Below are positions 8,958-56,238 of a stretch of DNA of 64,000 bases, piece by piece. The notes below the pieces were generated by a model. That model worked only from the letters and a program-made list of their open reading frames with translations, searched no databases and was not told the DNA's origin. Position numbers and translations under genes: made by a program. Origin of the DNA: Minisyncoccia bacterium (lineage in GTDB: Bacteria; Patescibacteriota; Minisyncoccia; 2-02-FULL-40-12; IGHO2-01-FULL-4-A); NCBI GenBank assembly GCA_050015375.1, contig JBEKBN010000003.1, positions 16,127-80,126 of the forward strand. The letters run 5' to 3'. Numbering within the stretch: the stretch's first letter is position 1; every line of letters starts with the position of its first letter.

Positions 8958-8958
8958 T

Positions 8959-9030: not shown

Positions 9031-9033
9031 CAC

Positions 9034-11214: not shown

Positions 11215-11302
11215 CCCCGTCATAATAAAGTAGGATTTATTTAGAACTTTAGTGTTAAAGTGTGTTTAGATTTAAAGAAAACTAGAGGGTAAAATAAGTC
11301 CA

Positions 11303-12412: not shown

Positions 12413-13562
12413 AAATTTGTCCGATTTAACAAAGGGTATTTACCTTTTACCATGGAATAGAAGCGACAATCCTAACGGATGGGTTGAGCCCTCCACTTTT
12501 TGCCAGTTAAAATGCCCGGGATGTTATCGTGCTTTGAATAAGGACGGTGCCGTTCGTGTCCATGAGGATTTGTCAGACATGAAAAAACAAATTGATATGT
12601 TCGTAAAAACTCGTAATGTTCAGACAATATCAATTTCGGGCGGAGAACCGTTGCTATATCCCAAACTCAAAGAACTTTTATCGTACATAAAATTGAAAGG
12701 ATTAAAGACTAAAATCTTTACTAACGGAATTGCTTTAGACGAGAAGAATCTCCGGGAACTAAAAAATCACGGGGCTAATGAATTTATAATTCACATCGAC
12801 AAATCTCAAGGCAGACAAGGTTATCATAATGAAAACGAACTTAATAAATTAAGAAGATATTATTGTGATTTATTCAGAAAAATCGGCGGTGTTAATTTAA
12901 GCTTTATCATGCCGATTTCGAAAGAAACATTGTCAGATATAAAGCCGGTATTATCTTTTTGCAGAGAAAATGCTGATATTGTTGGCCTAATTGTTTTTAC
13001 ATTGTATAGCGATGTTGTCTGGAATGAAAGTGAAAAGAAGAACATTAACACAGACCTCGCCATTTTGGATATTGTAAATCAGATACAGGAGAATTTTAAA
13101 TTCAAACCATGTGCATATCTTGGAAGCACAGAAAACTTGGCTTATCCATCTTGGCTTTTTTCAATGTCGATTGGTTTAAAGGACAAAATACTTGGTTTTT
13201 TTGACGGCAGAGTATACAAAGCAATTCAAGAAAAACATCATTCTCAACACGGTACGTATCTATATACCAAAATTAATAAACCAATTCTTGCCCGGCAATT
13301 GATAAAACTTCTTGGTTTCAGCTCAATTCGCCGCATTCTGGCTAATTATTCAAAAAATGTAATTATAAATCCTAAAAAAAGAGAAAAGTTATATATGCAA
13401 ACCTTGCTAATACTTCGCGGCCCAAAATTTGCCTCTGACGGCAGTAGGAATCTCTGTGCCGGCTGTCCCGATGCAATGTACTACAATGGTAAACTGGTTC
13501 CTTCATGTATTTTAGAAGAAGTTAAGCAGGGTGAACATAAAAATACAGAATTTACACTATGA
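12387..13562 (+). CDS. radical SAM enzyme (possibly with a C-terminal SPASM/twitch-like Cys cluster)
   Basis: CQLKCPGC (CX3CX2C) and SISGGEPLLYP. C-terminal CAGCPDAMYYNGKLVPSC. Overlaps the upstream gene by 26 nt. Confidence 0.8.
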   Translation: MKNLNMPYKNLSDLTKGIYLLPWNRSDNPNGWVEPSTFCQLKCPGCYRALNKDGAVRVHEDLSDMKKQIDMFVKTRNVQTISISGGEPLLYPKLKELLSYIKLKGLKTKIFTNGIALDEKNLRELKNHGANEFIIHIDKSQGRQGYHNENELNKLRRYYCDLFRKIGGVNLSFIMPISKETLSDIKPVLSFCRENADIVGLIVFTLYSDVVWNESEKKNINTDLAILDIVNQIQENFKFKPCAYLGSTENLAYPSWLFSMSIGLKDKILGFFDGRVYKAIQEKHHSQHGTYLYTKINKPILARQLIKLLGFSSIRRILANYSKNVIINPKKREKLYMQTLLILRGPKFASDGSRNLCAGCPDAMYYNGKLVPSCILEEVKQGEHKNTEFTL

Positions 13563-14443
13563 TTCTGGAAAACTATTCCTTAGTTAAGCGAATAATAAAA
13601 TATAGTAATGAGCGTTTTCCAATAATACTATGTTTAACCACAGCGTCGGTAGTTTTTAGTTCATTTGTTATTTCAACAGGAAAACTAGTACCGGAAATAA
13701 ATACAAATTTTGTCGTAGGATTTGTAACTGGATTGCTATATTTATTTCACATTAGGTTATTCGATGAATTAAAGGATTTTGAGCATGACTCTAAATACTA
13801 TCCGAAAAGACCTGTAATAAGAGGGCTGCTTTCATTAAATGAAATAAAGAACATCGCAATTGTTGCAATATTATTTGAATTTATCGCAAATCTGTTTGTT
13901 CCGACTAAAGTTTTCCTTTTTTTTCTAATCCTATTTGCCTATTCCGCTGTATGCAGATATGAGTTTTTTATCAGTGATTTGTTGAGACGTAACTTTTTCG
14001 TCTACAATATACTTCATTATTTCCAGATGTCATTGGTGGTCGTTTATCTTTATATTCTCGCCGGGGTGGATCTGCGTCATCTGGATAAATTGTTAATTCT
14101 ACATTTTATTTTTACTAATCTGACTTTTACTCTCATAGAATGGGCGCGAAAAATGAGGATTATTTCAGAAGAAAATGAGAGCAAGGACACATATTCAGCC
14201 CGCTTGGGTATAAGAGGAGTTTCTTTAGTATTTCTTATAATGGCGGCATCGACTTTTATTTGCTTCGGTTTTATCAAGGCAATGGTTGGATCATTCGGAC
14301 ATTCTATGTTTCTTTCTATATTGGGATTCATTCTCGTAATAACAGCAACACTTCTTTATGCTATAAAAAGGACAAAACTTTCAACAAATGCGCTTCAAAT
14401 ATCCTCTATTATATTTTTTGTGCTACTTCATTTTTCGGTTTAA
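13559..14443 (+). CDS. UbiA-family prenyltransferase-like membrane protein
   Basis: FDELKDFEHD (Asp-rich motif) and YPKRPVIRG (UbiA R-P-x-x-x-G motif). About 8 TM helices. 4-nt overlap with the upstream gene. Confidence 0.5.
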   Translation: MILENYSLVKRIIKYSNERFPIILCLTTASVVFSSFVISTGKLVPEINTNFVVGFVTGLLYLFHIRLFDELKDFEHDSKYYPKRPVIRGLLSLNEIKNIAIVAILFEFIANLFVPTKVFLFFLILFAYSAVCRYEFFISDLLRRNFFVYNILHYFQMSLVVVYLYILAGVDLRHLDKLLILHFIFTNLTFTLIEWARKMRIISEENESKDTYSARLGIRGVSLVFLIMAASTFICFGFIKAMVGSFGHSMFLSILGFILVITATLLYAIKRTKLSTNALQISSIIFFVLLHFSV

Positions 14444-14452
14444 ATAATAATC

Positions 14453-16888
14453 ATGCTATACACGCTTTCCAATATTATCGATAAGGACCTGGTTAAATTG
14501 GGTGGCAAAGGACTTAATCTGTACCTTCTTACAAAAGAGGGGCTACCGATTCCAGAATGGTTCATAATCCCGGCGGATGCAGATCTAAAAGAAATAGAAC
14601 CTCAAATCATGGCTCACTACAACCGATTAGCAAAAGATGGAGGTGTCGCGGTTAGATCATCTGCCAATGTGGAAGATGCGAAAGATATGTCTTTCGCAGG
14701 CCAATTCAGTAGTTACCTTAACATAAATACCTTTGAAGATTTGCACGAAGCGATTCAAAAAGTAAGAGAATCGGTAAATTCAAAAGTTGTTTCGAAATAT
14801 TTAAAAAATAATAATCTTCAGAAGGAGTCGATTAAAATGTCAGTTATTGTTCAAAAAATGATTTGTAGCGATATTTCCGGCGTTATGTTTACTGCCAATC
14901 CTATAACTGCCAATACCGACGAACTTATAATAAACTCTGCAACTGGTGTAGATTCTGTTGTGAAAGGAATAAAAGCAAATGTTCATATTTTTAATAAACG
15001 CAAGGGTTTAATTTTGGATACTGGATCTAAAATTCAAAACGGACTTAATAATGGACTTCTTGATAAACTGTTTAAAATTGGTATAAAAATTGAAAATATA
15101 TTTAACTCCCCGCAAGATATTGAATGGGCGATCAAAGACAAAGAAATATTTATTCTACAAAGCAGACCCATAACAAAGCTGAACAAATTTGAGGAACAGC
15201 TTTGGGATAATTCTAATATTTCCGAAAGTTATAGCGGGGTTACGATGCCCTTAACGATATCTTTTGCCAGGCGAATTTATTCGACCGTATACCGGGAAGT
15301 TGCCTTAACTTCAGGTGTTTCTAGACAGGTTATTGAGGATAACAAGCAACTTTTTGATAATATGCTTGGTTTTTTTAGAGGCAGATTTTTTTATAACATG
15401 GATAATTGGTATCGTTTGCTTTTATTTTTCCCAGCATTCGGTTTTACCAAAGGTTCCATGGAACAGATGATGAGCGTAAAAGAATTTCATAACTTTGATA
15501 AAACGATAAACAATTCATGGTTTTTTAATGTTAGATATATTCTTAGGGCAACTTACAGGTTTTTTAATTTTAACCATGAAATTAAGTCTTTTAAAGAAAT
15601 ATTCCATCAAACTTACGACCCTTTAAAAACCCTTGACCTATCGACCCTAACGGAGTTGGAATTATTGGCTTTATATAATAAAGTCGAGAGCAAAATTCTT
15701 CGACCATGGCACACGGCAATAGATAATGATTTTCTGGCAATGATCTTTTATGGACTTCTCCGGAAATTAACCGATCGTTGGGGACTTAATAAAATAAACC
15801 CGTCAATTTATAACGATCTTCTTTCGGGTATGAATAATGTCGCAAGTGCGGAACAAACCGAACAATTGTTAAAAATTACATCTCTCATCCGGGATAATAA
15901 AAAAGTACTAGAACTCTTTAATCAGGCAAACAGTGGGGTTTTGTATAATAAATATAAGCAAAAAGAATTTAATCCAGAGCTTCTAGGAGCAATCGATATT
16001 TATTTAGACAGATTTGGCGACCGTTTTGCTAATGAACTTAAATTGGAAGAACCAAATATAAAAGAGTCACCGGAAAAACTATTTAGTTTGATTAGGGTGT
16101 ATTTATCTATATTGCCCGAGAAGTTTGATGAGAAAATCAAAGGAAGAAATTCAATAAAATTACAGGCTATCGAATATCTTAAATCCAATTTAAACCCAAT
16201 AAAAAAGTTATTAATATTTTATGTTCTAAAACAATCTGAACGGTTCTTGAAAAATCGAGAACAGATGAGGTTAATGAGAGCAAAAATTTTCGGGTTTATC
16301 AGAAATATTTTCAAGGAAATTGGAACTAAATTTGAGATGAATAATATCATTGATAAATCAGATGATATATTTTTTCTGGAAATTGACGAAATTGCTAGAT
16401 TTATTGAAGGTTCTTCGTGCTGCTCAAACCTTAAAGATTTAATAAAGATTAGAGAAAAAGAATTTGATATTTATAAGCGCGAAAACATGGATGACAGATT
16501 TTATACTCACGGTGTCCCGTATTTAGATATTCCTTTATCAAAACCTGATTATGAGGTGGGGCAACAACCTAGAGTACTAAAGGGATTGCCAAGCTCTCCC
16601 GGAAAAGCTTGGGGTAAGGTTCAACTCATGGAAGAATTCAGCTATGAAATTGACGGGGGCGCAAGAATATTGATAACAAAGCATACAGATCCCGGCTGGA
16701 CGCCTATATTCAGTCGTTTCAGTGGAATTATCGTCGAAAATGGCGGGCAGCTTTCGCATGCCTCCATCGTATCACGAGAACTCGGCATTCCTTGCATTGT
16801 CGGAATTAAAGACGTGACGAGGATTATTAAAAATGGCGCCATGATAACCATGGATGGATCAAGAGGAGAATTGATAATTGGAAAATAA
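14453..16888 (+). CDS. PEP-utilizing enzyme family phosphotransferase (PEP synthase / rifampin-phosphotransferase-like three-domain architecture)
   Basis: N-terminal ATP-grasp KLGGKGLNLYLLTKEGLPIPEWFII. C-terminal phosphohistidine mobile domain GGQLSHASIVSRELGIPCIVG. 811 aa. Confidence 0.75.
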   Translation: MLYTLSNIIDKDLVKLGGKGLNLYLLTKEGLPIPEWFIIPADADLKEIEPQIMAHYNRLAKDGGVAVRSSANVEDAKDMSFAGQFSSYLNINTFEDLHEAIQKVRESVNSKVVSKYLKNNNLQKESIKMSVIVQKMICSDISGVMFTANPITANTDELIINSATGVDSVVKGIKANVHIFNKRKGLILDTGSKIQNGLNNGLLDKLFKIGIKIENIFNSPQDIEWAIKDKEIFILQSRPITKLNKFEEQLWDNSNISESYSGVTMPLTISFARRIYSTVYREVALTSGVSRQVIEDNKQLFDNMLGFFRGRFFYNMDNWYRLLLFFPAFGFTKGSMEQMMSVKEFHNFDKTINNSWFFNVRYILRATYRFFNFNHEIKSFKEIFHQTYDPLKTLDLSTLTELELLALYNKVESKILRPWHTAIDNDFLAMIFYGLLRKLTDRWGLNKINPSIYNDLLSGMNNVASAEQTEQLLKITSLIRDNKKVLELFNQANSGVLYNKYKQKEFNPELLGAIDIYLDRFGDRFANELKLEEPNIKESPEKLFSLIRVYLSILPEKFDEKIKGRNSIKLQAIEYLKSNLNPIKKLLIFYVLKQSERFLKNREQMRLMRAKIFGFIRNIFKEIGTKFEMNNIIDKSDDIFFLEIDEIARFIEGSSCCSNLKDLIKIREKEFDIYKRENMDDRFYTHGVPYLDIPLSKPDYEVGQQPRVLKGLPSSPGKAWGKVQLMEEFSYEIDGGARILITKHTDPGWTPIFSRFSGIIVENGGQLSHASIVSRELGIPCIVGIKDVTRIIKNGAMITMDGSRGELIIGK

Positions 16889-16890
16889 AC

Positions 16891-17904
16891 ATGAAAATTC
16901 AGAAATATAATTTTGATGTGAAACAGGTTAACTCCTTTTTGAAATTAATTGATATATTATACTTGAAAAACCAGAATACAAATCTATACAAAAATTTCAT
17001 TTTGGATTCTCTTAAACCTAAAAATCATTTTTATAAATTTGCTGATATCCAGAATTTCTTTGCTTTGGAACACGATTCTCCCCAGGGTCATATCTCCGCA
17101 ATGATTGATAACAGACTTCCTGGAGTCGGGCTCGTTGGTTTTTTTGAATCCTCAAACGCCGAAATTGCTGATAAACTGATAGATTTATCTATTGAATATT
17201 TTCGGGAAAAAGGTGTCACAACTATAAGAGGACCAATTGATTTATCAATTTGGCACAGATATAGATTTGCAAATCCGGCAGATACAGGAAATATATTTTT
17301 ATTCGAACCCTTTAATAAACCCAAATACCCGGAATATTTCTCAAATTATGGATTTAAAATTGCCGAAAAATATTTTTCAGGCTTACGCACTGATTTTAAT
17401 GACATTATCAATTATACGAAAGACGGATACGATAAAGCTTGTCAGAAAGGATTTAAAATAAGAACCATTAAACTCAATGAGTTTAATGAAGAATTAAAAA
17501 TAATTCACAGGCTATCCCTAGAAATATTTAAGGAAAGTTGGTCATTTGTTCCAATATCATTTGAAGAATTTAGTTCAATTTATAAAGGCATTGAGAAAAA
17601 AATTAACCCGCGTTTTTGCGAGTTTATTTGTGACGGAAAAAAGGAAATAGGCTTTTGTTTTAGTATTCCGGATTTTACGAGCCGTGAAAAAAAGTTGATT
17701 ATTAAAACGATAGGCGTACTGCCTGAATACCAGGGTCAAAATTTAGGCTTGGCCTTGATTTACGATCAGCATGTTAAAGCCAAAGCGGACAATTTTGAAA
17801 CAATAGTGTATGCACTTATGAAATATGGCAACAGGGCCTCACAGATTAATCCTTACGGAGCAAAAATATTTCGGGATTACGAGATATACGAATTAGAAAT
17901 ATGA
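16891..17904 (+). CDS. GNAT-fold acetyltransferase-like protein
   Basis: C-terminal VLPEYQGQNLGLALI (Q/RxxGxG/A acetyl-CoA motif). Starts 3 nt after the upstream stop. Confidence 0.4.
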   Translation: MKIQKYNFDVKQVNSFLKLIDILYLKNQNTNLYKNFILDSLKPKNHFYKFADIQNFFALEHDSPQGHISAMIDNRLPGVGLVGFFESSNAEIADKLIDLSIEYFREKGVTTIRGPIDLSIWHRYRFANPADTGNIFLFEPFNKPKYPEYFSNYGFKIAEKYFSGLRTDFNDIINYTKDGYDKACQKGFKIRTIKLNEFNEELKIIHRLSLEIFKESWSFVPISFEEFSSIYKGIEKKINPRFCEFICDGKKEIGFCFSIPDFTSREKKLIIKTIGVLPEYQGQNLGLALIYDQHVKAKADNFETIVYALMKYGNRASQINPYGAKIFRDYEIYELEI

Positions 17905-18530
17905 ATACAATCTTAACATCTTTGGTTTTTCTAGCATCTTTCGTTTTAGTCGAAGCAATTCAGCGAAAAACCAAATTAGAAAACGAATATTCCAGAAAAA
18001 TAGTTCATATAACCTCTGCGATTATCGTTTTTTTAATGCCTTATTATTTGAATCGCCTCGACATTATCGGGTTATCATTATTTTTCATCATTTTTTTATT
18101 AGTAACCAAGAAGTTAGGTTTTTTACAAAGCATTCACAGAGTCGGGCGGCACAGTCTGGGAGAAATATATTTTCCGCTTGGAGTTGGTTTAACAGCTTTT
18201 TTCTTTCTGCCGAATAACATTATTTCATTTCAGTTCGGCTTTTTAATTCTGGGGTTTTCAGATGCCATCGGGGGTCTAGTAGGATACTCACTCGGTAATC
18301 GTAAAACAATATTGCTTGGAAACAAAAGCATTGAGGGAACTGCCACCTTTTTCCTGACAACATTTCTGATATTTATATTTTTCATTTACTCAAAAACGAG
18401 CACAAATCTAATCTCTGCCTTTCCTGTTGTCTTGTTGATCACCCTTACAGAACTTATATTTACTGGCGGTTTAGATAATCTCTTCTTGCCAATTTTATCA
18501 GCAGTCCTTATTAAAGTGCTATTGAGTTGA
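17901..18530 (+). CDS. CTP_transf_1 (CdsA/CarS/dolichol-phytol kinase) superfamily membrane protein
   Basis: GYSLGNRKTILLGNKSIEGTATFF resembles the KxSxEGTxA motif of polyprenol/phytol kinases. About 6 TM helices. 4-nt overlap with the upstream gene. Confidence 0.4.
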   Translation: MNTILTSLVFLASFVLVEAIQRKTKLENEYSRKIVHITSAIIVFLMPYYLNRLDIIGLSLFFIIFLLVTKKLGFLQSIHRVGRHSLGEIYFPLGVGLTAFFFLPNNIISFQFGFLILGFSDAIGGLVGYSLGNRKTILLGNKSIEGTATFFLTTFLIFIFFIYSKTSTNLISAFPVVLLITLTELIFTGGLDNLFLPILSAVLIKVLLS

Positions 18531-20009
18531 TCGGGTAACTATGAACTTTTTCAAATATATCTTCCTGTCCTTTATAAATATCTCATCTTTCAGGCAAGAC
18601 AGCAGCTCTCTCTTCTCCTCTCGCGATCCTTCCTTGAGGATATACTTAGCATAGTTTTTTATATTCACTTCATTGATATTCGCTTCATTCTGATACTTCT
18701 GTCCAAGGACATTACCTATAAATTGCCGGTGTCGTGCCAGTTCTCTTTCAAGCTTCTCTTTCGCTCCGATCTTATCTATCGAAATTTCATCAATTAATTC
18801 CAGGAGCTGGCCGACCAGCTCCTCTTCACGTATGTATTTCTGTCCGCAATATTTGTCGTGGTATTTAGTACAGTGATAATAAATATATTTGGTTATACCT
18901 CCGTTAGCCAGCTTTTTATACTTCTCCGTTGCCGTGATGCCTGATCCGCAAGCTCCGCATTTGAATATTCTTACAAAATTAAATTCTTTTGTTCCCGGTC
19001 TTAACTTCGGAGTGGCTACTATTGCTGTCTGAACCTTGTTGAACAGATCCTGATCTATAATTGGCTCATGGGAACCGTTATAGAATATTCCGCTTCCTTC
19101 AGGATATTCGAACTTACCATAATAATAGTGGCGCTTAAGAGTGCAGTAAATCATACTGAGGGTTATTCTCTTTCCGGTTCGTGTCCTAAAGCTTGTTTCA
19201 TTATTAAGCCAGGCAAGTAAATCCCGTCCGCTGTATCCCTGATATGCGACCTTTTCGAACATCTGTTTTATAAACGGCGCTCTTATCGGGTCCAAAATAA
19301 CTATTTTCTGTCCCTTTTTTGCTGTTGTATCGTGTATATAGCCCAATGGAGGAACTCCCGGCCGCCAGCCCATTTCGCATTTGGTTCGCAATCCGCGTTT
19401 CACATTCTCGCCTTTGTGGTCGTTCTCCAGTTTCGCTTGTGAACACAAGATCATAAGAAGGAACTTCTCGTTCGGTGAATTAGTGAATCGCTGACCATGC
19501 GTCCGAATTTCTTTCAGGACCCCAGCATCCATAAGGTCAACAACTTTACCCAGATCTCCGGCATTTCTTGATATACGGCTCGGATCCCAGGCAATGATGC
19601 CATCGAACTTTCCGTTTCCGATATCTTTTAATAATTCATTGAAGACCGGCCGTAAGCCAGAATCCTTTGCTGAATGGCTTTCCTGTTTAATCTCAGAGAC
19701 GGTCAAACCATCCCGATTTGCCATCTGGATCATCTCCTTTATCTGAGACTCAATAGAGAGCGCCTGACGCTCGTCCTGCTCGCTTGATTTGCGGGCATAG
19801 AGGCAATACCTCAAAGACCCCTTCAAAGTCTTGCGAAAGATGGTTAGAGACCTGCTTGGGGAGCTTACAAAACAAAACAACCCAGTTGGGTTGTTTTGTT
19901 TTGTAAGATTCCGTCGGGGAGAAAGCCGACTTCTCGGCTTTCGTTCGGACTCGAAGGGCGCAAACGATATTTTTTCAGCAGAAAAAATCGTGCGCCCGTG
20001 GTCAGACAA
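18519..20009 (-). CDS. large serine recombinase (true start probably near 19821, not 20009)
   Basis: Catalytic LRYCLYARKSSEQDERQ, resolvase core, and a large C-terminal recombinase domain with a Zn-ribbon-like CGACGSG...CTKYHDKYC. The ORF-track start is a TTG at 20009, and the ORF reads through a 44-bp palindrome. A TTG giving MKGSLRYCLY lies just downstream of the palindrome. Confidence 0.85.
   Translation of the reverse strand: MSDHGRTIFSAEKISFAPFESERKPRSRLSPRRNLTKQNNPTGLFCFVSSPSRSLTIFRKTLKGSLRYCLYARKSSEQDERQALSIESQIKEMIQMANRDGLTVSEIKQESHSAKDSGLRPVFNELLKDIGNGKFDGIIAWDPSRISRNAGDLGKVVDLMDAGVLKEIRTHGQRFTNSPNEKFLLMILCSQAKLENDHKGENVKRGLRTKCEMGWRPGVPPLGYIHDTTAKKGQKIVILDPIRAPFIKQMFEKVAYQGYSGRDLLAWLNNETSFRTRTGKRITLSMIYCTLKRHYYYGKFEYPEGSGIFYNGSHEPIIDQDLFNKVQTAIVATPKLRPGTKEFNFVRIFKCGACGSGITATEKYKKLANGGITKYIYYHCTKYHDKYCGQKYIREEELVGQLLELIDEISIDKIGAKEKLERELARHRQFIGNVLGQKYQNEANINEVNIKNYAKYILKEGSREEKRELLSCLKDEIFIKDRKIYLKKFIVTRSTQ
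19864..19907. repeat. 44-bp element: perfect 21-bp inverted repeats flanking a central non-palindromic GT (candidate serine-recombinase crossover/att or res site)
   Basis: cttacaaaacaaaacaaccca GT tgggttgttttgttttgtaag. Located immediately 5' of the recombinase catalytic domain coding region. Confidence 0.6.
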
Positions 20010-25245: not shown

Positions 25246-25322
25246 TGCTTTGTCCGGGAAAGAACATCCGACAAAAAACTTCCGCCTCGCGGAAGTTTTT
25301 TGTCGGACCCATCGGCAAGAAA

Positions 25323-26960: not shown

Positions 26961-27816
26961 TTTGAAATTCGTCGAAACGGGAAAGGGGAGGATATATTAT
27001 AAATTTATTGCGGGCGCGATTTCGCGCTCGCGCGAAATCGCGCCCGCGGCCGAGCCAATTTTCGCGAAACCGACTCTCATTTTTCTCCATGGCCTTTCGG
27101 CTAATCATACGACCTGGACGGCGGTTGCGGAACAATTCAACCGCCTGGGCTACGATTGTTTATTGCCCGATATGCGCGGACACGGATACTCTGACAAGAC
27201 AAAATCCCGCTCGCTCTACCATCTGCCGGTTTTCGCCGATGACCTTGACCTGATTTTTAAAAAAGAAAACCTTTCGGAAGTTGTTTTGATCGGCTATTCT
27301 TTCGGCGGTTCAGTAGCGCTCCGGTACGCTGTTGATCATCCCGGATCGGTCAAAAATTTAGTCCTCATCAGCACTAATTTCGTCAGCCCGCTGGATTATC
27401 ACGGTCTTGGTTTTTTGAACTTTTTGGCCTATACTTTTGTGAACGGTTTTGCTTGGTCAATGTTTTGGCAAGGCCGCCGAAATTACTATTATTACGACCA
27501 TGCCACCGCCAAGGGTTATTGGCACAGCACATTCACAGGTTGGACGGCAATGCCCGTTTGCGTCAATCATTGGCTCTTAGCCGAATTGTTAAAAGTCGAT
27601 TTTTCCGCCGATCTGGGAAAAATCAAATGTCCGGTCTTGATCGTCCGCGGCGGCAACGACCCGTTCCTGACCAAAAAAGAAGCCGTGAAAATGGCGGAGG
27701 GCATTTCCAGTTCGAAGCTCGTCCAGCTTGATGACTCCAGCCACTTCCTGGCTTCAAAAAATCAAGAGCAAATTTTCCAAGTTATCAGCGGATATCTTAA
27801 CGAACAAAAAAAATGA
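26947..27816 (+). CDS. alpha/beta hydrolase
   Basis: LIFLHGLSANHTTW, GYSFGG (GxSxG) and a C-terminal His region. The track start at 26881 is probably an upstream extension, so MNSNDLKF at 26947 was used. Confidence 0.65.
   Translation: MNSNDLKFVETGKGRIYYKFIAGAISRSREIAPAAEPIFAKPTLIFLHGLSANHTTWTAVAEQFNRLGYDCLLPDMRGHGYSDKTKSRSLYHLPVFADDLDLIFKKENLSEVVLIGYSFGGSVALRYAVDHPGSVKNLVLISTNFVSPLDYHGLGFLNFLAYTFVNGFAWSMFWQGRRNYYYYDHATAKGYWHSTFTGWTAMPVCVNHWLLAELLKVDFSADLGKIKCPVLIVRGGNDPFLTKKEAVKMAEGISSSKLVQLDDSSHFLASKNQEQIFQVISGYLNEQKK
27010..27047. repeat. 38-nt GC-rich perfect palindrome inside the hydrolase CDS
   Basis: gcgggcgcgatttcgcgc tc gcgcgaaatcgcgcccgc, in frame, encoding AISRSREIAPA. Confidence 0.8.
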
Positions 27817-35212: not shown

Positions 35213-35692
35213 TTATTTTCTTAATTCGGTTATCAACGCGGTGGCTTTATTAACAAAATCCTCCGGGTCCATTGGACATCCCGGAACTTCGGCATCAACT
35301 TTGACAATGTCCGAGACCTTCAGAACTTTCGGCAGTGCGGCGAATTGATCCAAAAACGGCTGGATGCTTTGTTTTTGTTCGACGTTGAAAAAATTCCTTT
35401 GGCCTGACGGCATTCCGACTACGGCGCAGGCGCCGACGGCGACAAGTTTTTTCGATAGGTCGCGGATCTGTTTAAGTTTGTCGATTTGTTTTTGGGAGGC
35501 GATAGAACCTTCAATGAAAGCGATGTCGAACGGTTCCATTGTATTTTTGGTTTTCAAGGCCCGGAAATTCTTAAATTCCAAAATTTTGCTCCATTCTAAC
35601 CAATGGTCGTTCAAAAGCTCAGTCATCACGATCGTGTTGTCTTCGCAGCAGGAAAATGTGAACCAAGCGCATTTTAGTTTTTGGTCGGCCAT
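35213..35692 (-). CDS. [NiFe]-hydrogenase small subunit (group 3-type, 159 aa)
   Basis: FSCCEDNT, GACAVVG and PGCPM Cys motifs of the proximal FeS cluster. Abuts the large subunit gene. Confidence 0.75.
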   Translation of the reverse strand: MADQKLKCAWFTFSCCEDNTIVMTELLNDHWLEWSKILEFKNFRALKTKNTMEPFDIAFIEGSIASQKQIDKLKQIRDLSKKLVAVGACAVVGMPSGQRNFFNVEQKQSIQPFLDQFAALPKVLKVSDIVKVDAEVPGCPMDPEDFVNKATALITELRK

Positions 35693-35702
35693 AATTTTGT
35701 TT

Positions 35703-35872
35703 GACGGATGATACCTCCTATCACCACTTGAATCCCCAGCGAGGATTCTACGTTCTCTCGAAGTTTGTGGATTCTGGCGAGAGAAAAAATGATTATTGAA
35801 ATATTATATCATTTTTTCTCTCGCCAGACCGTGCAATCCACAACTTCGAGAGTGCTAGGAAGTATCATCCGT
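35703..35872. repeat. intergenic imperfect-palindrome element, copy 1 (family with conserved CCCAGCGAG and GACCGTGCAATCCACAA bulges)
   Basis: Arms gacggatgatac/gtatcatccgtc. ~90% identical to copy 2, with compensatory stem changes. Confidence 0.8.
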
Positions 35873-36669
35873 CAAGCCCTATCGTTATTTGCAAATCTAG
35901 TACTCATTCTAGTATATTTTTCCAAATATTTCACTTGACGATTTGTTAATATCTCGCAGGGCTGGTCCCAGTGGATCGAAATCATGTCTCCTGGCTTCAC
36001 CTCTTCCATAAAATCGTCATGCAATTTCCGGTGAATGATTTTGTCATATTCTGACCCGAAAGTAAAACCGGCAGGTTCAGAAAAAACCAGTGACTGAGTT
36101 TTTACGGTTAGCGCCGGCCCGTCAATTTTGATGATTTTTCCCCAGCTAACTCGGCAATGGTCGACATCGTCATAAGTTTTCAGTTCCATGAAATCCTGTT
36201 TTTTCTTCCAAATGTTATAAACATGAAAAGTGTGGTGCATTCTTGCCCCCACACCAAACAAGGATTGTTTGAACCCTGCGCTTGAAGCGCTTATCCTTGT
36301 TTGGTGTGGGGGTGAACCCCCTAGTTTATCTCTTAATATTTTAAATTCCTTTGGGCTTAATTTTTTATCAACTTGTGTCTCGATCAAGTGTTCATAAAAA
36401 TTTTTTTTGCCGATATTTTCCAGAAGTTCATTGCCCAGCCAGTATGCCTCAACAACTTTGTCGTCAAAGGGGTCTTTGATCTTATTGGCTTCGGCGATCT
36501 TTTGTAAATACGGATACATGGTTTTGAATTGTTTTAATAATAAAACCAATCCCTTGTCGGGACTTTGTTCGGTGATGTAACTCAAAACTTCTTTATTCGC
36601 TTCCGGCCCGCAAAGATGCAACCGGTTGGGTCCGAAAGCATAGCGGACGCAGCGCTGGAGGCCGTCCAT
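35872..36669 (-). CDS. hypothetical protein with an in-frame palindromic insertion
   Basis: 265-aa ORF. The 36246-36312 palindrome encodes ...GSPPHQTRISASSAGFKQSLFGVG... Confidence 0.4.
   Translation of the reverse strand: MDGLQRCVRYAFGPNRLHLCGPEANKEVLSYITEQSPDKGLVLLLKQFKTMYPYLQKIAEANKIKDPFDDKVVEAYWLGNELLENIGKKNFYEHLIETQVDKKLSPKEFKILRDKLGGSPPHQTRISASSAGFKQSLFGVGARMHHTFHVYNIWKKKQDFMELKTYDDVDHCRVSWGKIIKIDGPALTVKTQSLVFSEPAGFTFGSEYDKIIHRKLHDDFMEEVKPGDMISIHWDQPCEILTNRQVKYLEKYTRMSTRFANNDRA
36246..36312. repeat. GC-rich perfect inverted repeat (20-bp arms cccccacaccaaacaaggat / atccttgtttggtgtggggg) inside a CDS
   Basis: Arms are exact reverse complements. The spacer contains gcgcttgaagcgc. Confidence 0.8.
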
Positions 36670-39526: not shown

Positions 39527-39545
39527 GGTAATAAAATAAATAATA

Positions 39546-39695
39546 TCTTCCCATCACCACTTGAATCCCCAGCGAGGATTCTGCGTTCCCTTGAAGATTG
39601 TGGATTCTGTCGAGAGAAAAAATGATTATGAAATATTATATCATTTTTTCTCTCGACAGACCGTGCAATCCACAACTTCAAGGGTGCTGGGAAGA
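39546..39695. repeat. intergenic imperfect-palindrome element, copy 2
   Basis: Same conserved bulges as copy 1. Stem differences are compensatory (tctgtcgagag/ctctcgacaga versus tctggcgagag/ctctcgccaga). Confidence 0.8.
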
Positions 39696-39701
39696 CATTA
39701 T

Positions 39702-41009
39702 TTATTTTTTCGCAAAAAAATGCGGGGTTTGGTCACCGACAAACGCTTTCGGCTGGGAAGTTTTTTCAGAAAAATTAGGATTGAGATTGATGGGCGACAT
39801 TTGGCGGAGTTTTCGGACGACTAACGGCAATTTTTTCAAGACATAATCAACATCGGCAATCGTTGTATATTTTCCGAGAGTGAAACGGACACTACCGTGG
39901 GCGAATTCATAAGGCCGGCCGAGGGCCGTCAAAATATGCGACGGCTCCAGCAATTGGGAATTGCAAGCCGAACCGGTGTTGACGATGATATTTTCTTTAT
40001 CCAGATACAAAACTGCCGCTTCGCCTTCAATGTCTAAAATGGAAACATTCAAAAAATTCGGCAGGCGATTTGTCGGATGGCCGTTCAAAATGACTTTCTG
40101 AATTTTGGAGAAAATACCCATGGTCAATCGGTCACGAAGTTTGGCAACTCGGGCGCACTCGGAATCTTTTTCATTGTGAACGAGCCACAGCGCCTCGCCA
40201 AAGCCGACAATACCGGGAACATTTTCAGTGCCGGAACGTACTCCGCTTTGCTGACCGCCGCCGAAAATTATTGGCCGGATCACCGTTCCTCTCCTTATAT
40301 ATAAACCGCCGATGCCCTTGGGTCCGCAAATCTTGTGAGCCGAAAGAGTCAACAAGTCAACGCCCAGTTTTTGAACATCCAGATCAAGATAACCGGCGAT
40401 CTGCGAAGCATCGGTATGAAAATATGGAATTCGTGATTCATGATTCATGATTCGTGATTCTCTGGTAGTTTTTACTAGTTTGGCGATCGGTTGGATCGTG
40501 CCGGTTTCATTATCGGCTGAAGTTATTGAGATCAAAATCGTCTTTTCATCGATCAATTTTGCCAGATCTTCCGGGTAAATTAACCCATCGGGTCTAACCT
40601 TAACTTCGACAATTTCAAAACCTTCTCTGGCAAGCTGTTCCGCGGCGGCAATGATGCCTTTATGCTCAATGTTGGAAATAATTATTTTGTTGCCATATTT
40701 TTTGTTGGCGCGGGCAGTTCCCAGAATCGCCAAATTATCAGCTTCGGTCGCCGAACCGGTGAAAACGAATTCACTTGCCCCCACACTCAAGGATTGAGTG
40801 TGGGGGTGAACCCGGCAATTCAAAACCGCTGAAATTTTATCAAGCGAATCATTGATGGCAATCTTTGAACGGTGGCCGAGAGCGTCAAGGTTGGAAGGAT
40901 TGCCGAAACTCTCGCTGAAGAACGGCATCATCAATTTCAAAACCTCCCGCCTGACCGGCGTCGTCGCGGCGCAGTCGAAATAATGGATGGATTGTCCTTT
41001 TCCCTTCAT
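39702..41009 (-). CDS. cysteine desulfurase (NifS/IscS class) with two short in-frame insertions
   Basis: PLP-Lys motif SAHKICGPKGIGGLYIRRG, class V aminotransferase fold. Insertions: the palindrome 40778-40806 (encoding HPHTQSLSVGAS) and the heptamer repeat 40433-40460 (encoding ESRIMNHESRI). Confidence 0.85.
   Translation of the reverse strand: MKGKGQSIHYFDCAATTPVRREVLKLMMPFFSESFGNPSNLDALGHRSKIAINDSLDKISAVLNCRVHPHTQSLSVGASEFVFTGSATEADNLAILGTARANKKYGNKIIISNIEHKGIIAAAEQLAREGFEIVEVKVRPDGLIYPEDLAKLIDEKTILISITSADNETGTIQPIAKLVKTTRESRIMNHESRIPYFHTDASQIAGYLDLDVQKLGVDLLTLSAHKICGPKGIGGLYIRRGTVIRPIIFGGGQQSGVRSGTENVPGIVGFGEALWLVHNEKDSECARVAKLRDRLTMGIFSKIQKVILNGHPTNRLPNFLNVSILDIEGEAAVLYLDKENIIVNTGSACNSQLLEPSHILTALGRPYEFAHGSVRFTLGKYTTIADVDYVLKKLPLVVRKLRQMSPINLNPNFSEKTSQPKAFVGDQTPHFFAKK
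40433..40460. repeat. 4 x 7-nt tandem repeat RTGATTC inside the cysteine desulfurase CDS
   Basis: gtgattc atgattc atgattc gtgattc. Confidence 0.8.
40778..40806. repeat. 29-nt GC-rich perfect palindrome cccccacactcaa-gga-ttgagtgtggggg inside the cysteine desulfurase CDS
   Basis: 13-bp exact arms. Confidence 0.85.
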
Positions 41010-43338: not shown

Positions 43339-43568
43339 AATATTCTAAACAAAAATCCGTGTTCGAGCACGGATTTTTGTTTAGACGCGGTATCCTTAAT
43401 CATAACTTCAAGATAATATTATAACTTCCGTAAAGTTATCCACTTTTTTGTTAAAAAATATTTTTTAAGTGGTATAATTAAAGTATAAAATAATTCCTAA
43501 TAAATATTTTTCTAAACAAAAATTAATTTCTTGAAAAATCGGCAAAGAATTTTTTAAGAAAATATAGA

Positions 43569-45213: not shown

Positions 45214-45462
45214 ATGCAAGGTTATCCTAATTTTGTCGGTGTTCCCGGATACGGCTGGAATGCGCCGGCGTGGGTTGGCTGGCTTGTCGCGGTCGTTGTC
45301 ATCTGGTCGATAATTTGGAAGGGGATCGCTTTGTGGAAAGCGGCCGAAAAAAGAAGCAAGCCGTGGTTCATCATTTTACTTTTGGTCAACACCATCGGTA
45401 TTTTGGATATAATCTACATTTACGCCGTCAGCAAGAAATCGAAAGGGCAGGCGCAAGTTTAG
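45214..45462 (+). CDS. small membrane protein
   Basis: 82 aa, two TM helices. Confidence 0.35.
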   Translation: MQGYPNFVGVPGYGWNAPAWVGWLVAVVVIWSIIWKGIALWKAAEKRSKPWFIILLLVNTIGILDIIYIYAVSKKSKGQAQV

Positions 45463-45504
45463 CCCTCGCGCCATTTCCGAAATTCCAATTTTAATCTTCA
45501 GCTA

Positions 45505-45666
45505 GCTTCGGTGATCGCCTCTCTGATCACCACTCCAAAACCCAGCGAGTTTTGTTCGTTCCGTCAAAATTGTGGATTCAGCTTTTGGTTTGGCAGAACA
45601 TTATACCAAAAGCTGACCGTGCAATCACACAATTTTGACGGTGCTCCGAGAGGCGATCACCTCGCT
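45505..45666. repeat. intergenic imperfect-palindrome element, copy 3 (diverged)
   Basis: Retains CCCAGCGAG on the 5' side and GACCGTGCAATCACACA on the 3' side. Its own complementary stems: ggtgatcgcctctc/gagaggcgatcacc and ccgtcaaaattgtg/cacaattttgacgg. Confidence 0.65.
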
Positions 45667-45806
45667 TAATCGCCGGAATATTATTGAAGTTCGGAAATAG
45701 CTCAAATTGATTGTCAGGTACTTATCTGCGCGGTCGCTCGAAGAGGGTTGGCTTGCTCACCATCTCCCAATTTGTAAAATCCGCCAGCGGATGATTAAAT
45801 TGAGGT

Positions 45807-46478
45807 ATGAACATAAACGAAATATATCTGAAAATTGTTGCTCTGAACAAGGGTAAAATCACCGTTGCAATTGATGGCTATATTGGTTCGGGGAAAACAT
45901 TTATCGCGAATCAAATCATCAAAGATCATGAAAACGAGATTGTCTTGATTCACGGAGATGATTTTCTAGTTTCCGGCGCAGGAAGGAAAACCGCACTTGA
46001 AAAATATGGTCCGGATTTGGCGATGTCGGTATATGGAAATCGCTGGCAAGAAATTAGGCGTTTAGTGAAAGCATTCAAAAGAGGAGAAAATGAATTTAAA
46101 TTCAAGGGATTCGATCATGAGTCGGGTGAATGTAATATTGAGATGAGTTATAATTTCACGGGCAAGAAAATTTTAATTGCCGAAGGCGTATTTTTAATTC
46201 ACCCAAAAACAATTACCGATATTTGGGATTATAAAATTTATGTAAAAGGGGATATCGAGAAAATAGACAAACGGAGAATTGAAAGAGAAAAAGCCCGCTG
46301 GGGTGAAAAATATTTCCCCGAAACTCGCCCCGATTCCCACATGGGCATGGCCGTCCGCGCCTACAAAAAATTTATTGAGGAATACAATCCAGAACATCTC
46401 GCTGATTTGGTAATAGATAATTCCAATAAATTATGTCTTCGCGTAATTAATAAACTATTTGAAAACAAGAGTTTTTGA
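45807..46478 (+). CDS. P-loop kinase (uridine/cytidine kinase / PRK-like)
   Basis: Walker A IDGYIGSGKTFIA. Confidence 0.5.
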   Translation: MNINEIYLKIVALNKGKITVAIDGYIGSGKTFIANQIIKDHENEIVLIHGDDFLVSGAGRKTALEKYGPDLAMSVYGNRWQEIRRLVKAFKRGENEFKFKGFDHESGECNIEMSYNFTGKKILIAEGVFLIHPKTITDIWDYKIYVKGDIEKIDKRRIEREKARWGEKYFPETRPDSHMGMAVRAYKKFIEEYNPEHLADLVIDNSNKLCLRVINKLFENKSF

Positions 46479-46592
46479 GGGCTTGACGGCTGGTATTGAG
46501 GTTTGGTATAATGGAGGCATAGGTAAATTGAGCATCGTGCTTGCGAGCCATGAGTAGCGGAAGTTCTTTTAACTAGTTTACGGAGGAAAACT

Positions 46593-47030
46593 ATGCCGGA
46601 TTTGGAGAAAGAAGATTTGGATGCCTGGCTGGAAGCCATGAACGAAATGACAATTACTCGAGTGGAGATGTTGGGATTTTCGTCGAGTGCCATGACTCTT
46701 TCTCGAGCTGGTTTTTGCAGGATGGTGTCGAAAAACACCAAGTTTTGCGATGACCTCGAACTGCGAACACGAGTCCTCGAGTTGCTCGCCGATGAGGATG
46801 TCGATGTCAGAGCGGCAGCTTGTCAGACCGTTCTAGATCTAAATTTGGATGCTTCCGGTTACTGGGTGAGAATTCACAAGGACGAGACGCGAGACTGCAT
46901 CCGACCCAGTCGCATGTGGCAATTGGTATATAATCCTACCCTCACAGCCGAAGAAGAGAGGGCGCATATCAAATCATGTCGCTATTGCAAACGGTCTCTA
47001 AAATTCATGGAGGACGAGAAAACCACTTAA
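46593..47030 (+). CDS. hypothetical protein
   Basis: 145-aa ORF, locally GC-richer. Confidence 0.4.
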   Translation: MPDLEKEDLDAWLEAMNEMTITRVEMLGFSSSAMTLSRAGFCRMVSKNTKFCDDLELRTRVLELLADEDVDVRAAACQTVLDLNLDASGYWVRIHKDETRDCIRPSRMWQLVYNPTLTAEEERAHIKSCRYCKRSLKFMEDEKTT

Positions 47031-47094
47031 GTCTGACAGTTTTTGTCCCCGTTGATCTGTGATTCAAAGGAGAACCCAAGGGGAGCAGAACCTC

Positions 47095-47125
47095 AGCCGA
47101 TCTAGCAAGGGTCGGCTTTTTGTTT
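47095..47125 (+). terminator. rho-independent terminator
   Basis: agccga-tctagcaagg-gtcggct followed by ttttgttt. Confidence 0.6.
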
Positions 47126-47412
47126 GGAAGAAAATAATCGTCCGAAACGGATTAGTATTGAATCTTGAAACCTCAATAATTAATCAGCAACTAAGCGAGG
47201 CGATCGCGCCTCCAAGCAGTTCCAAAATTGAGAGCCGGCAAGGTCGGCTCAAGTGGCATAATGGTTGCCCGAAGGGCAACCCACCACGAGCCGCGTCTCC
47301 AATTTTGAAACAACGAGGCGAATCGCTGGTGAGCCGAGTGGTGACCAGAGGTACAATTGCCGAAGCTGGCAGAAATTAAAAATGGAATTTCAGAAATGAG
47401 ACGAGGCGAGCA

Positions 47413-48798: not shown

Positions 48799-48832
48799 GA
48801 GGGCCGCCCTCAAGCACTTGAGGGCGGCCCTC
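48799..48832. repeat. 34-nt GC-rich near-perfect palindrome (intergenic)
   Basis: gagggccgccctcaag-ca-cttgagggcggccctc. Confidence 0.8.
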
Positions 48833-51910: not shown

Positions 51911-52807
51911 TTACGATTGCTTAGAAAGTTCCTCAATTATCGACTCAAGATTTCCATCAAGTATTTTTGAAATGTTGCCCCAACTTTTTTTGACTCTGTG
52001 GTCGGTGATGCGGTCTTGGGGAAAATTGTAAGTTCTGATCTTCTCCGAACGGTCAGCGGTGCCGATCTGACGACGTCGCTCCGATGTCAGCGCGCCTTCC
52101 TCCTGATTTCTTTTTATATCTAACAACTTCGTCCGCAAAATTTCAAGAGCCCGTTCTTTGTTTCTGGCTTGGGATCTTTCCTCTTGAGAACTTACCACCA
52201 AACCTGACGGTTTGTGAACCAGCCGGACGGCAGTCGAGACCTTGTTGACATTTTGGCCGCCCGGGCCGCCGGAGCGGTAAAAAGAAATTTCAATGTCGTC
52301 GGGCTTGATCTCAATGTCGGTTTCTTTGGCTTTCGGCAAGACCGCCACCGAAACGGTGGAGGTGTGAACCCGGCCACCTTTCTCGGTATCGGGTATCCGT
52401 TGAACTCGGTGAACGCCGGATTCATATTTCATTTTTTCCAAAACGCCGTTGCCGCTAAGCTCGAAAACCATATTTTTGTAACCGCCAAGAGAAGATTGGC
52501 TATAATCCAAAATAGTCAAATGCCAACCCTGGATCGCGGCGTATTTTTTATACATTTCAAAAAGCGTTGCCCCGAATAATCCGGCTTCATCACCGCCGGC
52601 GCCGGCGCGGATCTCGACGATGGCTTCACTATAAATGGCGGCGCCCGACGGCGCGCCGTCGGGCGCCGCCAAAAGTCGTTCTATCTCGGCATATCTTTTT
52701 GACACTTCAGCCACCTTCTTATAATCTAAAACAAACCCAGGGTCGCTGAGCTGTTTCTGGATAGCGTCGAGTTCCTGTTTTAATTCCTCCTTGGAAGCCA
52801 TTGGCAT
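51911..52807 (-). CDS. prfA: peptide chain release factor 1 (short form, 298 aa)
   Basis: GGQ motif (SGGPGGQNVN) and a PxT-type tripeptide (RIPDTEKGGRVHTS). No SPF motif and no internal frameshift site. Confidence 0.75.
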   Translation of the reverse strand: MPMASKEELKQELDAIQKQLSDPGFVLDYKKVAEVSKRYAEIERLLAAPDGAPSGAAIYSEAIVEIRAGAGGDEAGLFGATLFEMYKKYAAIQGWHLTILDYSQSSLGGYKNMVFELSGNGVLEKMKYESGVHRVQRIPDTEKGGRVHTSTVSVAVLPKAKETDIEIKPDDIEISFYRSGGPGGQNVNKVSTAVRLVHKPSGLVVSSQEERSQARNKERALEILRTKLLDIKRNQEEGALTSERRRQIGTADRSEKIRTYNFPQDRITDHRVKKSWGNISKILDGNLESIIEELSKQS

Positions 52808-54936: not shown

Positions 54937-55010
54937 GCCGGAGTAGCTCAACGGTAGAGCAGCACTTTTGTAAAGTGAAGGCTTGTCGGGTTCGAATCCC
55001 ACCTCCGGCT
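54937..55010 (+). tRNA. tRNA-Thr (UGU), with aberrant T-stem (1-nt bulge) and a 27-43 mismatch
   Basis: Acceptor GCCGGAG/CTCCGGC, D-arm GCTC-AACGGTA-GAGC, anticodon loop TTTGTAA. T-arm gtCggg-ttcgaat-cccac needs a bulged C. Confidence 0.6.
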
Positions 55011-55670: not shown

Positions 55671-55753
55671 GGGCGGTTGGGTGAGTAGCAATACCAGCGC
55701 GCTGTAAACGCGCCGACCATCGGTCTTCGGGGGTGCAAGTCCCTCACCGCCCA
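55671..55753 (+). tRNA. tRNA-Tyr (GUA), class II with long variable arm. Unusual T-loop (TGCAAGT)
   Basis: Acceptor GGGCGGT/ACCGCCC, anticodon stem GCGCG/CGCGC with loop CTGTAAA, variable arm gacc-atc-ggtc, T-stem GGGGG/CCCTC. Confidence 0.6.
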
Positions 55754-55790: not shown

Positions 55791-55862
55791 GCCGGGGTAG
55801 TTCAGTGGCAGAACGCTTTCTTGGTAAGAAAGAAGTCGTGAGTTCGATTCTCACCTCCGGCT
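55791..55862 (+). tRNA. tRNA-Thr (GGU)
   Basis: Acceptor GCCGGGG/CTCCGGC (one G-U), D GTTC/GAAC, anticodon stem CTTTC/GAAAG with loop TTGGTAA, T-arm GTGAG-TTCGATT-CTCAC. Confidence 0.85.
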
Positions 55863-56167: not shown

Positions 56168-56238
56168 GGGGATGTCGGTTAACGGCAAACCAACGGTCTC
56201 CAAAACCGTGACTGTAGGTTCGATTCCTACCATCCCCG
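56168..56238 (+). tRNA. tRNA-Trp (CCA)
   Basis: Acceptor GGGGATG/CATCCCC, D GGTT/AACC, anticodon stem ACGGT/ACCGT with loop CTCCAAA, T-arm GTAGG-TTCGATT-CCTAC. Confidence 0.85.

Follow-up and report, generated by a model that had tools for sequence, protein, structure and literature searches.

The ERIC/IRU elements and the bcr1-type repeats of the Bacillus cereus group are imperfect palindromes of ~120-170 nt that lie in transcribed intergenic spacers in either orientation. They are present in multiple copies and across species, are predicted to fold, and have a patchy copy number among related genomes; we know of no transposase for them. Here we analysed a stretch of 64,000 nt from a Minisyncoccia bacterium (contig JBEKBN010000003.1, positions 16,127 to 80,126 of the forward strand; hereafter "the window"), in which a preliminary description, made from the plus-strand sequence alone, had reported three copies of an intergenic palindromic element. 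These copies belong to an undescribed family of non-coding, hairpin-forming repeats of Minisyncoccia/Patescibacteria (candidate phyla radiation, CPR) genomes. The family is new and well-supported, and it falls within the known kind "structured mobile intergenic repeat". It may spread via a folded single-stranded intermediate.

In descriptive terms the family fits an ERIC/bcr1-like class, being an imperfect intergenic palindrome of 100-200 nt that occurs in both orientations and in multiple copies with a conserved fold; there is no homology. It differs from ERIC and bcr1 in sequence and in conserving the interior rather than the whole unit, and also in its three-way junction with an invariant bulge and loop, its measured strand asymmetry, its nesting, and the presence of host flanking sequence in its arms. 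REP/REPIN-RAYT systems and BIMEs are likewise intergenic palindromes, thought to move as folded single strands by means of an enzyme encoded in trans; compensatory change maintains the hairpin in REPs and REPINs, and BIMEs have a comparable mosaic organisation. However, REP units are 20-40 nt long with a conserved 5' GTAG, REPINs are simple doublets, and RAYT is an IS200/IS605-like Y1 HUH protein, whereas the new unit is ~190 nt long with a single asymmetric fold, and its alignments contain no module of GTAG plus palindrome. No RAYT gene was seen in the ~370 kb examined or among the 126 neighbouring proteins scanned.

Integron attC sites offer a further parallel. They work only when one strand, of defined polarity, is folded, and they vary in length; their stem sequence is free, and structure and extrahelical or bulged bases are conserved. 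In contrast to attC, the new family has no R''/R' core sites (RYYYAAC/GTTRRRY); its hairpin bases, for example GACGGATGATAC...GTATCATCCGTC, contain no GTTRRRY. Its orientation is mixed, its neighbours are housekeeping genes, it is accompanied by no integron integrase, tyrosine recombinase or cassette array, and many more of its nucleotides are conserved. Classical miniature inverted-repeat transposable elements (MITEs) such as Correia, RUP and Nezha are also small, non-coding, multi-copy intergenic hairpins that can donate stop codons or promoters and that break assemblies. The new family resembles MITEs in its pattern of presence and absence, with four copies in the 64 kb of the window, 41 matches, and empty orthologous sites in relatives. 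Classical MITEs, however, have conserved terminal repeats, target-site duplications and a cognate insertion sequence (IS), whereas the termini of the new family are its most variable part; neither the window nor the loci examined yielded an autonomous cognate IS sharing those ends. Rickettsia palindromic elements (RPEs) are likewise hairpin repeats that invade compact genomes, in some cases by in-frame insertion into genes, and for another kind of compact genome, that of sponge mitochondria, PMC2800124 describes repetitive hairpin-forming elements. The new family is intergenic, and the sequences and hosts of the RPEs and of the mitochondrial elements are unrelated to it.

Distribution of the element family

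One genome per species was scanned with a two-motif pattern, and metagenome contigs with a three-motif pattern. The two-motif scan returned 17 stretches, six of which carry all the other motifs of the element; the remainder are GC-rich chance matches. The six true matches come from Candidatus Yanofskybacteria (two metagenome-assembled genomes, MAGs), a Patescibacteria MAG, a contig binned as Saccharibacteria, and an Uhrbacteria MAG. The three-motif scan, which included groundwater contigs, gave 22 loci, all of them genuine. A covariance model, proposed in the preliminary description as a check, was applied as model R1 and recovered 41 instances (matches of at least 42 bits in the window plus 28 loci), ~32 of them distinct. 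Beside the A-type it recovered a diverged subfamily, which we term B-type. Seven loci contain second and third copies; five of these are distinct when the duplicate captures L027/L029 and L013/L032 are each counted once. The core of the element is about 150-170 nt, and full hairpins are about 180-245 nt. The NifU protein of the window is identical to an NCBI protein labelled as that of a Minisyncoccia bacterium MAG, which places the window in Patescibacteria/CPR.

Comparison with Rfam, also proposed earlier, yielded only tRNAs when the whole window was scanned with Rfam 15 at gathering thresholds. Permissive scans of copies 1, 3 and 4 of the window and of the A and B types of locus L004 gave only weak matches of a generic-hairpin, miRNA-like kind, far below gathering scores. 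No Rfam 15 family matched on either strand, including 6S RNA, HEARO/omega RNA, IS605-orfB and ribozymes. The phage and plasmid collections showed no similarity to the element, viral contigs gave no match in the pattern scan, and the family is not described in the literature searched. Further copies thus exist beyond the three first noticed, and no match to a known IS or MITE terminal structure was found.

Conserved fold and invariant unpaired nucleotides

Covariation was measured in an alignment of 32 sequences (A3) with a specified structure of 50 pairs; column shuffles, and structures whose partners were slid by 1-3 columns, served as controls. Paired cells amounted to 91.4%, compared with 65% in column shuffles and 33-45% in slid controls. 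Double-sided changes were present in 44 of the 50 pairs, and the observed covariation measures were reached by 0 of 500 shuffles.

The fold has three parts. P1 is a long closing stem, rich in G·U and tandem G·A pairs on the strand complementary to the one originally read. P2 is a long arm that bears the invariant bulge GCAYGGU; its apical loop in the A-type is GUAUAAU. P3 is a short side hairpin with the invariant loop UCGCUGG. All helices covary, including the side hairpin and a 2-bp RC/GY helix, both of which are unrelated to the overall palindrome; the P3 stem shows double compensatory changes at all six of its pairs, and its loop TCGC-GG is invariant. The 17 invariant columns are concentrated in the 7-nt bulge (GCA-GGU) and the P3 loop (UCGC-GG). 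The bulge is unpaired in all folds, and GCA-GGT is invariant in 32/32 aligned copies, position 4 alone being variable (C, U or A). The helix adjacent to the bulge changes from GAUU/AAUC to GCCA/UGGC in the B-type, with covariation. The UAUAAU motif of the apical loop is nearly invariant in the A-type, whose apical stem often contains a tandem G·A pair (CGAG/CGAG), and is missing in the B-type. The outer stem is the least conserved part; apart from a loose similarity, RGYYTGR..AATGCC, it is locus-specific. By-eye inspection for pseudoknots among the bulge, the P3 loop and the apical loop revealed no convincing complementarity or covariation. These findings, with covariation over 32 distinct copies of many genomes far above shuffled and slid controls and a few invariant unpaired nucleotides, bear out the selected structure claimed in the preliminary description. 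The palindromes are not products of random decay.

Only one strand of the element is selected to fold

When the strand originally read was folded with G·U forbidden and its symmetric internal loops were tallied, A·C mismatches outnumbered G·T by 45 to 8, and C·T outnumbered A·G by 92 to 4. The same bias was present in the fast-diverging outer stem alone (A·C 32 vs G·T 4, p = 2e-6; C·T 36 vs A·G 2). On the complementary strand these mismatches become G·U wobbles and tandem G·A pairs. Under RNA parameters the reverse complement was the more stable strand in 32 of 34 instances, by a mean of -9.9 kcal/mol; under DNA parameters it was so in 33 of 34, by a mean of -6.0 kcal/mol. The selected strand is thus the reverse complement (the minus strand for copies 1-3), and not the strand that had been taken to fold.

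In loci with opposed copies (L016, L019 and L027), polarity tracks the element and not the chromosome strand; the diverged copy 4 of the window is the one exception to this element-bound polarity. Regional mutation bias is ruled out as the source of the strand asymmetry, since each of two opposed copies at the same locus prefers the strand of its own element. By our own averaging, the stability difference is similar for copies that are sense (mean ~-8.6) and antisense (~-11) to host genes.

Insertion sites, orientation and nesting

The elements are inserted in very short intergenic spacers and at gene ends, in either orientation and 4-50 nt from flanking genes; at some loci the stop codons and last codons of host genes fall within the element arms. 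Of the copies flanked on both sides by co-directional genes, 15 have their folding strand antisense to those genes and 9 have it sense, a ratio not different from random. The four copies of the window are bunched, not evenly spaced, with a density of ~1 per 16 kb.

Related genomes contain the corresponding sites without the element. The NifS-NifU spacer is 175 nt in the window, where it holds copy 2, compared with 22 nt in L044 (whose NifU is 84% identical to that of the window), 3 nt in L043 and 5 nt in L047; in L046 the two genes overlap. Downstream of the S21 gene, L022 has a B-type copy, whereas L038 has a spacer of 1 nt. The 71.5 kb of relatives that were picked via NifU, independently of the element, gave one weak B-type match only.

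Copies are also nested. Locus L004 has a complete A-type element inside B-type arms, and these arms are 26/26 identical to those of a B-type copy 2 kb off; L037 has the same A-in-B composite at a different locus. In L045 a truncated B-type half adjoins another hairpin family. The inner parts of L010 and L011, whose bins represent different CPR classes, are 93% identical, and their outer stems differ. Two Logan contigs, L041 (3758 nt) and L042 (3756 nt), are independent assemblies of the same organism that break at copies 2 and 1, which fits repeats fragmenting CPR assemblies. As a separate observation, inverted pairs of copies bracket one or two ordinary genes at window 45470-47410, L016 6547-7487 and L027 61-1061, with the folding strands pointing outwards; the bracketed gene encodes a serine hydrolase in L016 and a 153-aa protein in L027.

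All-against-all clustering of 227 open reading frames (ORFs) from the loci and the window, together with a Pfam analysis of 126 of the locus ORFs, revealed only housekeeping synteny and no recurrent partner protein. No conserved upstream sequence, canonically spaced sigma-70 promoter or terminator was found at the copies. The distance from the TTGCAC-like motif to TATAAT is 13 or 22 nt, which does not fit a sigma-70 promoter; an internal or upstream sigma-70 promoter or terminator was rejected on this non-canonical spacing and on the lack of both TTGCAC and TATAAT in the B-type. Other candidates were also rejected. The retron msr-msd RNA does not fit, there being no reverse transcriptase (RT) beside any copy and the polarity of the outer stem being opposite to the msr-first layout. 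A retron-like layout, in which the outer stem would pair at the RNA level and the long arm at the cDNA level, was tested and rejected, because the excess of A·C mismatches lies mainly in the outer stem and no RT is present. For an IS200/IS605 PATE or a TnpB/IscB guide RNA, the element is a single continuous hairpin and neither tnpA nor tnpB is among the neighbours. For a guide or bridge RNA, the apical loops show no systematic identity or complementarity to the flanks.

Proposed extension of the hairpin from host flanking sequence

The NifS-NifU spacer of a relative, AAGACATTATTCATTTTTATAC, aligns with the sequence 3' of copy 2, AAGATATTATTTATTTTATTACC. The first inserted bases, which form the 5' arm of copy 2 (ATAATGTCTT), are the exact inverted complement of the start of the native spacer. 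ATGTCTTCCC/GGGAAGAYAT is also present in three other copies, so part of the copy 2 arm is element-derived and only its outer ~10 bp are clearly local. In L022, the last ~7 codons of the S21 gene recur, inverted and imperfectly copied, as the distal arm of the B-type element; the protein sequence of these codons is conserved in L038. At these two loci the arms appear, from the sequence comparisons, to result either from fold-back (template-switch) extension of a DNA hairpin or from an insertion that duplicates its target in inverted orientation; under either route the hairpin would exist at the DNA level. We also considered whether the outer arms are pre-existing terminator palindromes. The empty site of L044, which has a small palindrome with an A-tract and a T-tract, fits this idea, but it is not a general explanation because most outer arms are homologous between copies.

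Copies in the window and their neighbours

The three copies of the preliminary description (35703-35872, 39546-39695 and 45505-45666) were found where it had placed them. On the strand read there they form the long imperfect hairpins claimed, with folding energies of -87.5, -76.7 and -74.7 kcal/mol for copies 1, 2 and 3 (z -13.4, -11.2 and -8.6, respectively, vs dinucleotide shuffles). The hairpins are real but longer than was described, extending over ~35699-35878 and ~39533-39708 for copies 1 and 2; the extended forms of copies 3 and 4 are about 230-245 nt. The compensatory changes reported between copies 1 and 2 are exact: TCTGGCGAGAG/CTCTCGCCAGA is replaced by TCTGTCGAGAG/CTCTCGACAGA, and CTCTCGAAG/CTTCGAGAG by CCCTTGAAG/CTTCAAGGG. 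The two motifs reported as conserved, CCCAGCGAG and GACCGTGCAATC, each occur exactly once in each of copies 1-3; GACCGTGCAATC has exactly three occurrences in the window, and the composite 5' motif ATCACCACTNNAANNCCCAGCGAG has three matches against 0.00 expected. The 5' motif CCCAGCGAG is conserved as claimed, but it forms the loop of the small covarying side hairpin and not a bulge. Two features had been missed: a further conserved motif, ATTATA(C), in the apical loop, and a fourth, diverged copy with its core at 47196-47359 and an orientation opposite to that of copies 1-3. A filter-free covariance-model scan of the whole window found only these four copies, all within 35.7-47.4 kb.

Copy 1 (A-type, 35699-35878, folding on the minus strand) matches the covariance model at 35706-35875 with 139.9 bits, and its inverted-repeat arms are 35701-35724 and 35852-35875. 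Its elements on the minus strand are the side hairpin P3 at 35730-35748 (invariant loop CCAGCGA on the plus strand, UCGCUGG on the folding strand), the apical-loop motif at 35803-35808 (ATTATA on plus, UAUAAU on the folding strand), and the invariant 7-nt bulge at 35828-35834 (ACCGTGC on plus, GCACGGU on the folding strand). The copy lies between a hydrogenase small-subunit gene (35213-35692, minus) and a DUF6390 gene (35872-36669, minus), and the DUF6390 stop codon (35872-35874) is inside its outer arm. Copy 2 (A-type, 39533-39708, folding on the minus strand) fills the NifS-NifU spacer; it matches the model at 39539-39707 with 133.2 bits, its inverted-repeat arms are 39533-39558 and 39683-39708, and the NifS stop codon (39702-39704) is in the outer arm.

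Copy 3 is an A-type copy of long form (45470-45701, core 45512-45664, 140.5 bits) that folds on the minus strand. It lies between a DUF5652 gene (45214-45462, plus) and a P-loop kinase gene (45807-46478, plus), both of them antisense to its folding strand. Copy 4, a diverged long form (47165-47410, plus strand), scores 56.1 bits (E about 3e-14 to 1e-13), has the bulge GCAAGGU and the P3 loop AUCGCUGGU, and is set in a convergent intergenic region. Copies 3 and 4 have additional flanking homology in common and bracket a 1.5-kb two-gene segment encoding the P-loop kinase and a HEAT-like protein. The genes that flank copies 1 and 2 are co-directional on the minus strand, those that flank copy 3 are on the plus strand, and those that flank copy 4 are convergent. 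The neighbouring genes are ordinary: they encode NiFe hydrogenase, DUF6390, NAD(P)-disulfide oxidoreductase, NifU, NifS, a tRNA-binding protein, DUF5652, P-loop kinase and S41 peptidase.

Other repeats and features of the window and of related genomes

Related Patescibacteria genomes carry further, unrelated families of hairpin repeats that also have a variable outer stem and a conserved core. Two such families, with two copies each and unrelated outer stems, are present in L045 (9880-9995 and ~4690-4830; 12430-12590 and 8075-8215), and one of them contains a GGCACGGAU stretch recalling the GCACGGU bulge. A 220-nt hairpin in L004 (5590-5810, z -10) has the same layout. These repeats fit a published survey across the tree of life in which the CPR phyla were reported as the densest of all in perfect inverted repeats (PMC13155455).

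Within the window, a perfect 20-bp palindrome with a 27-nt loop (36246-36312) is located inside the DUF6390 gene on the minus strand. This palindrome encodes 22 aa inserted in frame, GSPPHQTRISASSAGFKQSLFG, which the L045 and L047 orthologues lack; it resembles an RPE in this respect and is not a member of the family studied here. Unique perfect palindromes of 16-26 bp are found at 19859-19912, 25267-25307, 27010-27047, 43344-43385, 48799-48832 and 52636-52671. Several of these have an A-tract before and a T-tract after the stem. They resemble bidirectional intrinsic terminators and show that intergenic regions of this genome often contain long perfect hairpins.

The region 4047-20009 is probably an integrated island. 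It begins with a type III restriction-modification pair (N6_N4 methylase, 4047-5888; ResIII helicase, 5891-7879; Pfam), which is far from the copies, and includes two tRNA genes at 8959-9106. A low-GC stretch (0.33-0.37) at ~8-18 kb contains radical-SAM, UbiA, DUF3419 and PEP-utilising enzyme genes, and beside it is a large serine recombinase gene (18519-20009, minus; Pfam). Four plus-strand tRNA genes are grouped in 1.3 kb (54937-55010, 55671-55753, 55791-55862 and 56168-56238). The regions 60484-61800 and 62678-63577 contain at least 5 tandem units of 150 nt (73-78% identical) and two pairs of ~200-nt repeats 762-765 nt apart; this part of the window is GC-richer (0.49-0.52), has no long ORF called, and may represent a repetitive surface-protein gene or a frame problem.

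Discussion

The reading that fits these observations best, to which we assign a probability of roughly 0.5, is that the element is a MITE/REPIN-like non-autonomous mobile repeat spreading via a folded single-stranded intermediate. It accounts jointly for the covarying stems, the invariant loops, the context-independent asymmetry, the random orientation, the nesting and the patchiness. The element would be copied or moved as a folded single strand of fixed polarity, and an enzyme encoded in trans would recognise its shape plus a few invariant unpaired nucleotides. In the stems, pairing alone and not sequence would be constrained, which would explain the covariation; the fixed polarity of the intermediate would explain why the strand tolerant of G·T and G·A is the same element strand whatever the direction of the host genes. 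The extension of arms at the DNA level and the absence of promoters lead us to prefer single-stranded DNA (ssDNA) to RNA as the putative intermediate. Once inserted, the hairpin may lengthen outwards by fold-back copying of flanking host DNA, and any effects on host mRNA, such as a strong hairpin in an operon or a donated stop codon, would be by-products.

Several points weigh against mobility through such an intermediate. No transposase, HUH endonuclease, integrase or RT is recurrent beside the elements in the 227 clustered ORFs or in the Pfam analysis of 126 proteins, and the window holds one large serine recombinase only, 16 kb from the copies. Conservation is lowest at the ends and highest in the interior, a pattern opposite to that of classical transposons and characteristic of structured RNAs. 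Neither a target-site duplication nor a conserved target motif was definable; the filled and empty versions of the NifS-NifU and S21 sites show no direct repeat, and arm extension blurs the boundaries. There are just two empty/filled comparisons, between genomes that are 73-84% identical in NifU and not near-isogenic, and flank-derived arms were analysed in two cases only. The orientation counts (15 antisense, 9 sense) are small, and the strand-stability test fits RNA and ssDNA alike.

The preliminary description had argued for a selected structure rather than a MITE, and had offered a small RNA (sRNA) family or a protein-bound DNA element. The structure is selected, but the contrast is a false dichotomy, because empty orthologous sites, patchiness, nesting and assembly breaks, all hallmarks of mobile repeats, are also present. 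A protein-bound DNA element comes nearer to our reading, in which a protein would recognise the folded single strand. A trans-acting non-coding RNA (ncRNA) gene, encoding an sRNA or the RNA of a ribonucleoprotein on the strand complementary to that originally read and using its bulge and loops for protein binding or catalysis, is suggested by a closing stem in which only pairing is kept, by the three-way junction and invariant loops, by tandem G·A and G·U pairs on one strand, and by conservation over several CPR lineages. It is nevertheless unlikely, as is the sRNA family in particular: copies occur ~1 per 16 kb and 4-50 nt from neighbouring genes, in mixed orientation with 15 antisense and 9 sense, and have no conserved upstream sequence, sigma-70-type promoter or terminator. 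Some copies are nested or truncated and some arms are made of host coding sequence, close relatives do without the element, and the strand asymmetry is equal in sense and antisense copies. It is quite unlikely, too, that the element is a new functional RNA serving its own propagation, as a self-processing ribozyme or as a recognition RNA for a nuclease, recombinase or reverse transcriptase acting in trans. In that case the GCAYGGU bulge, the UCGCUGG loop and the junction nucleotides would form an active or binding core, and the family would represent a novel type of mobile element that depends on RNA and is specific to CPR bacteria.

The position of copies in operon spacers, right after stop codons, would fit a cis-acting mRNA signal: an RNase III site, a stabilising 3' hairpin of the REP/ERIC kind, or a bidirectional intergenic terminator. 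Double-stranded stems of at least 25 bp would resemble RNase III substrates, and ERIC elements in Yersinia reportedly modulate mRNA stability. However, such a signal should have a fixed orientation, whereas both orientations occur and the better-folding strand is more often antisense; there are no U-tracts 3' of the hairpin, in relatives the corresponding operon junctions function with no element present, and neither the nesting nor the invariant unpaired motifs would be explained. We consider this signal very unlikely, and give equally little weight to a host-beneficial DNA structure, i.e., a cruciform or lagging-strand hairpin bound for nucleoid organisation, by gyrase or IHF as in BIMEs, or for priming or RNA-polymerase entry, the single-stranded TATAAT loop and TTGCAC-like bulge mimicking an open promoter in the last case. 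The hairpin evidently forms in DNA, since its arms are extended by inverted copies of the flank, the A-type apex presents single-stranded GTATAAT and a TTGCAC motif on the folding strand, and the mosaic, layered organisation is like that of BIMEs. Yet the B-type keeps the bulge and the P3 loop without TATAAT or TTGCAC, the distribution is patchy with close relatives lacking the element, the copies are clustered and not evenly spaced, and the bound protein is purely putative. Unselected covariation, produced by hairpin-templated repair (quasipalindrome correction) in neutral palindromic junk DNA, is the least probable explanation; the asymmetry and the invariant unpaired motifs already refute most of it. 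Fold-back copying appears to take place at these loci, and CPR genomes are extremely rich in inverted repeats (PMC13155455). But templated repair would erase asymmetry, whereas the bulge, the side hairpin, the 2-bp RC/GY helix and the tandem G·A pairs are kept over 32 diverged copies; it predicts no bias between G·T and A·C, whereas 8 and 45 were observed; and it leaves the invariant unpaired nucleotides unexplained.

CPR genomes are very small yet rich in inverted repeats, and this family provides a concrete case of such repeats that can be modelled. Its unusual traits are those of a mobile hairpin conserved in its interior, with one strand selected to fold, nesting, and apparent growth from host flank. 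In practical terms, these repeats fragment the assemblies of CPR MAGs and change where genes end there, and the covariance model can be used to annotate them. A partner enzyme, if found, could define a new structure-guided mechanism of single-strand mobility or a new class of RNA.

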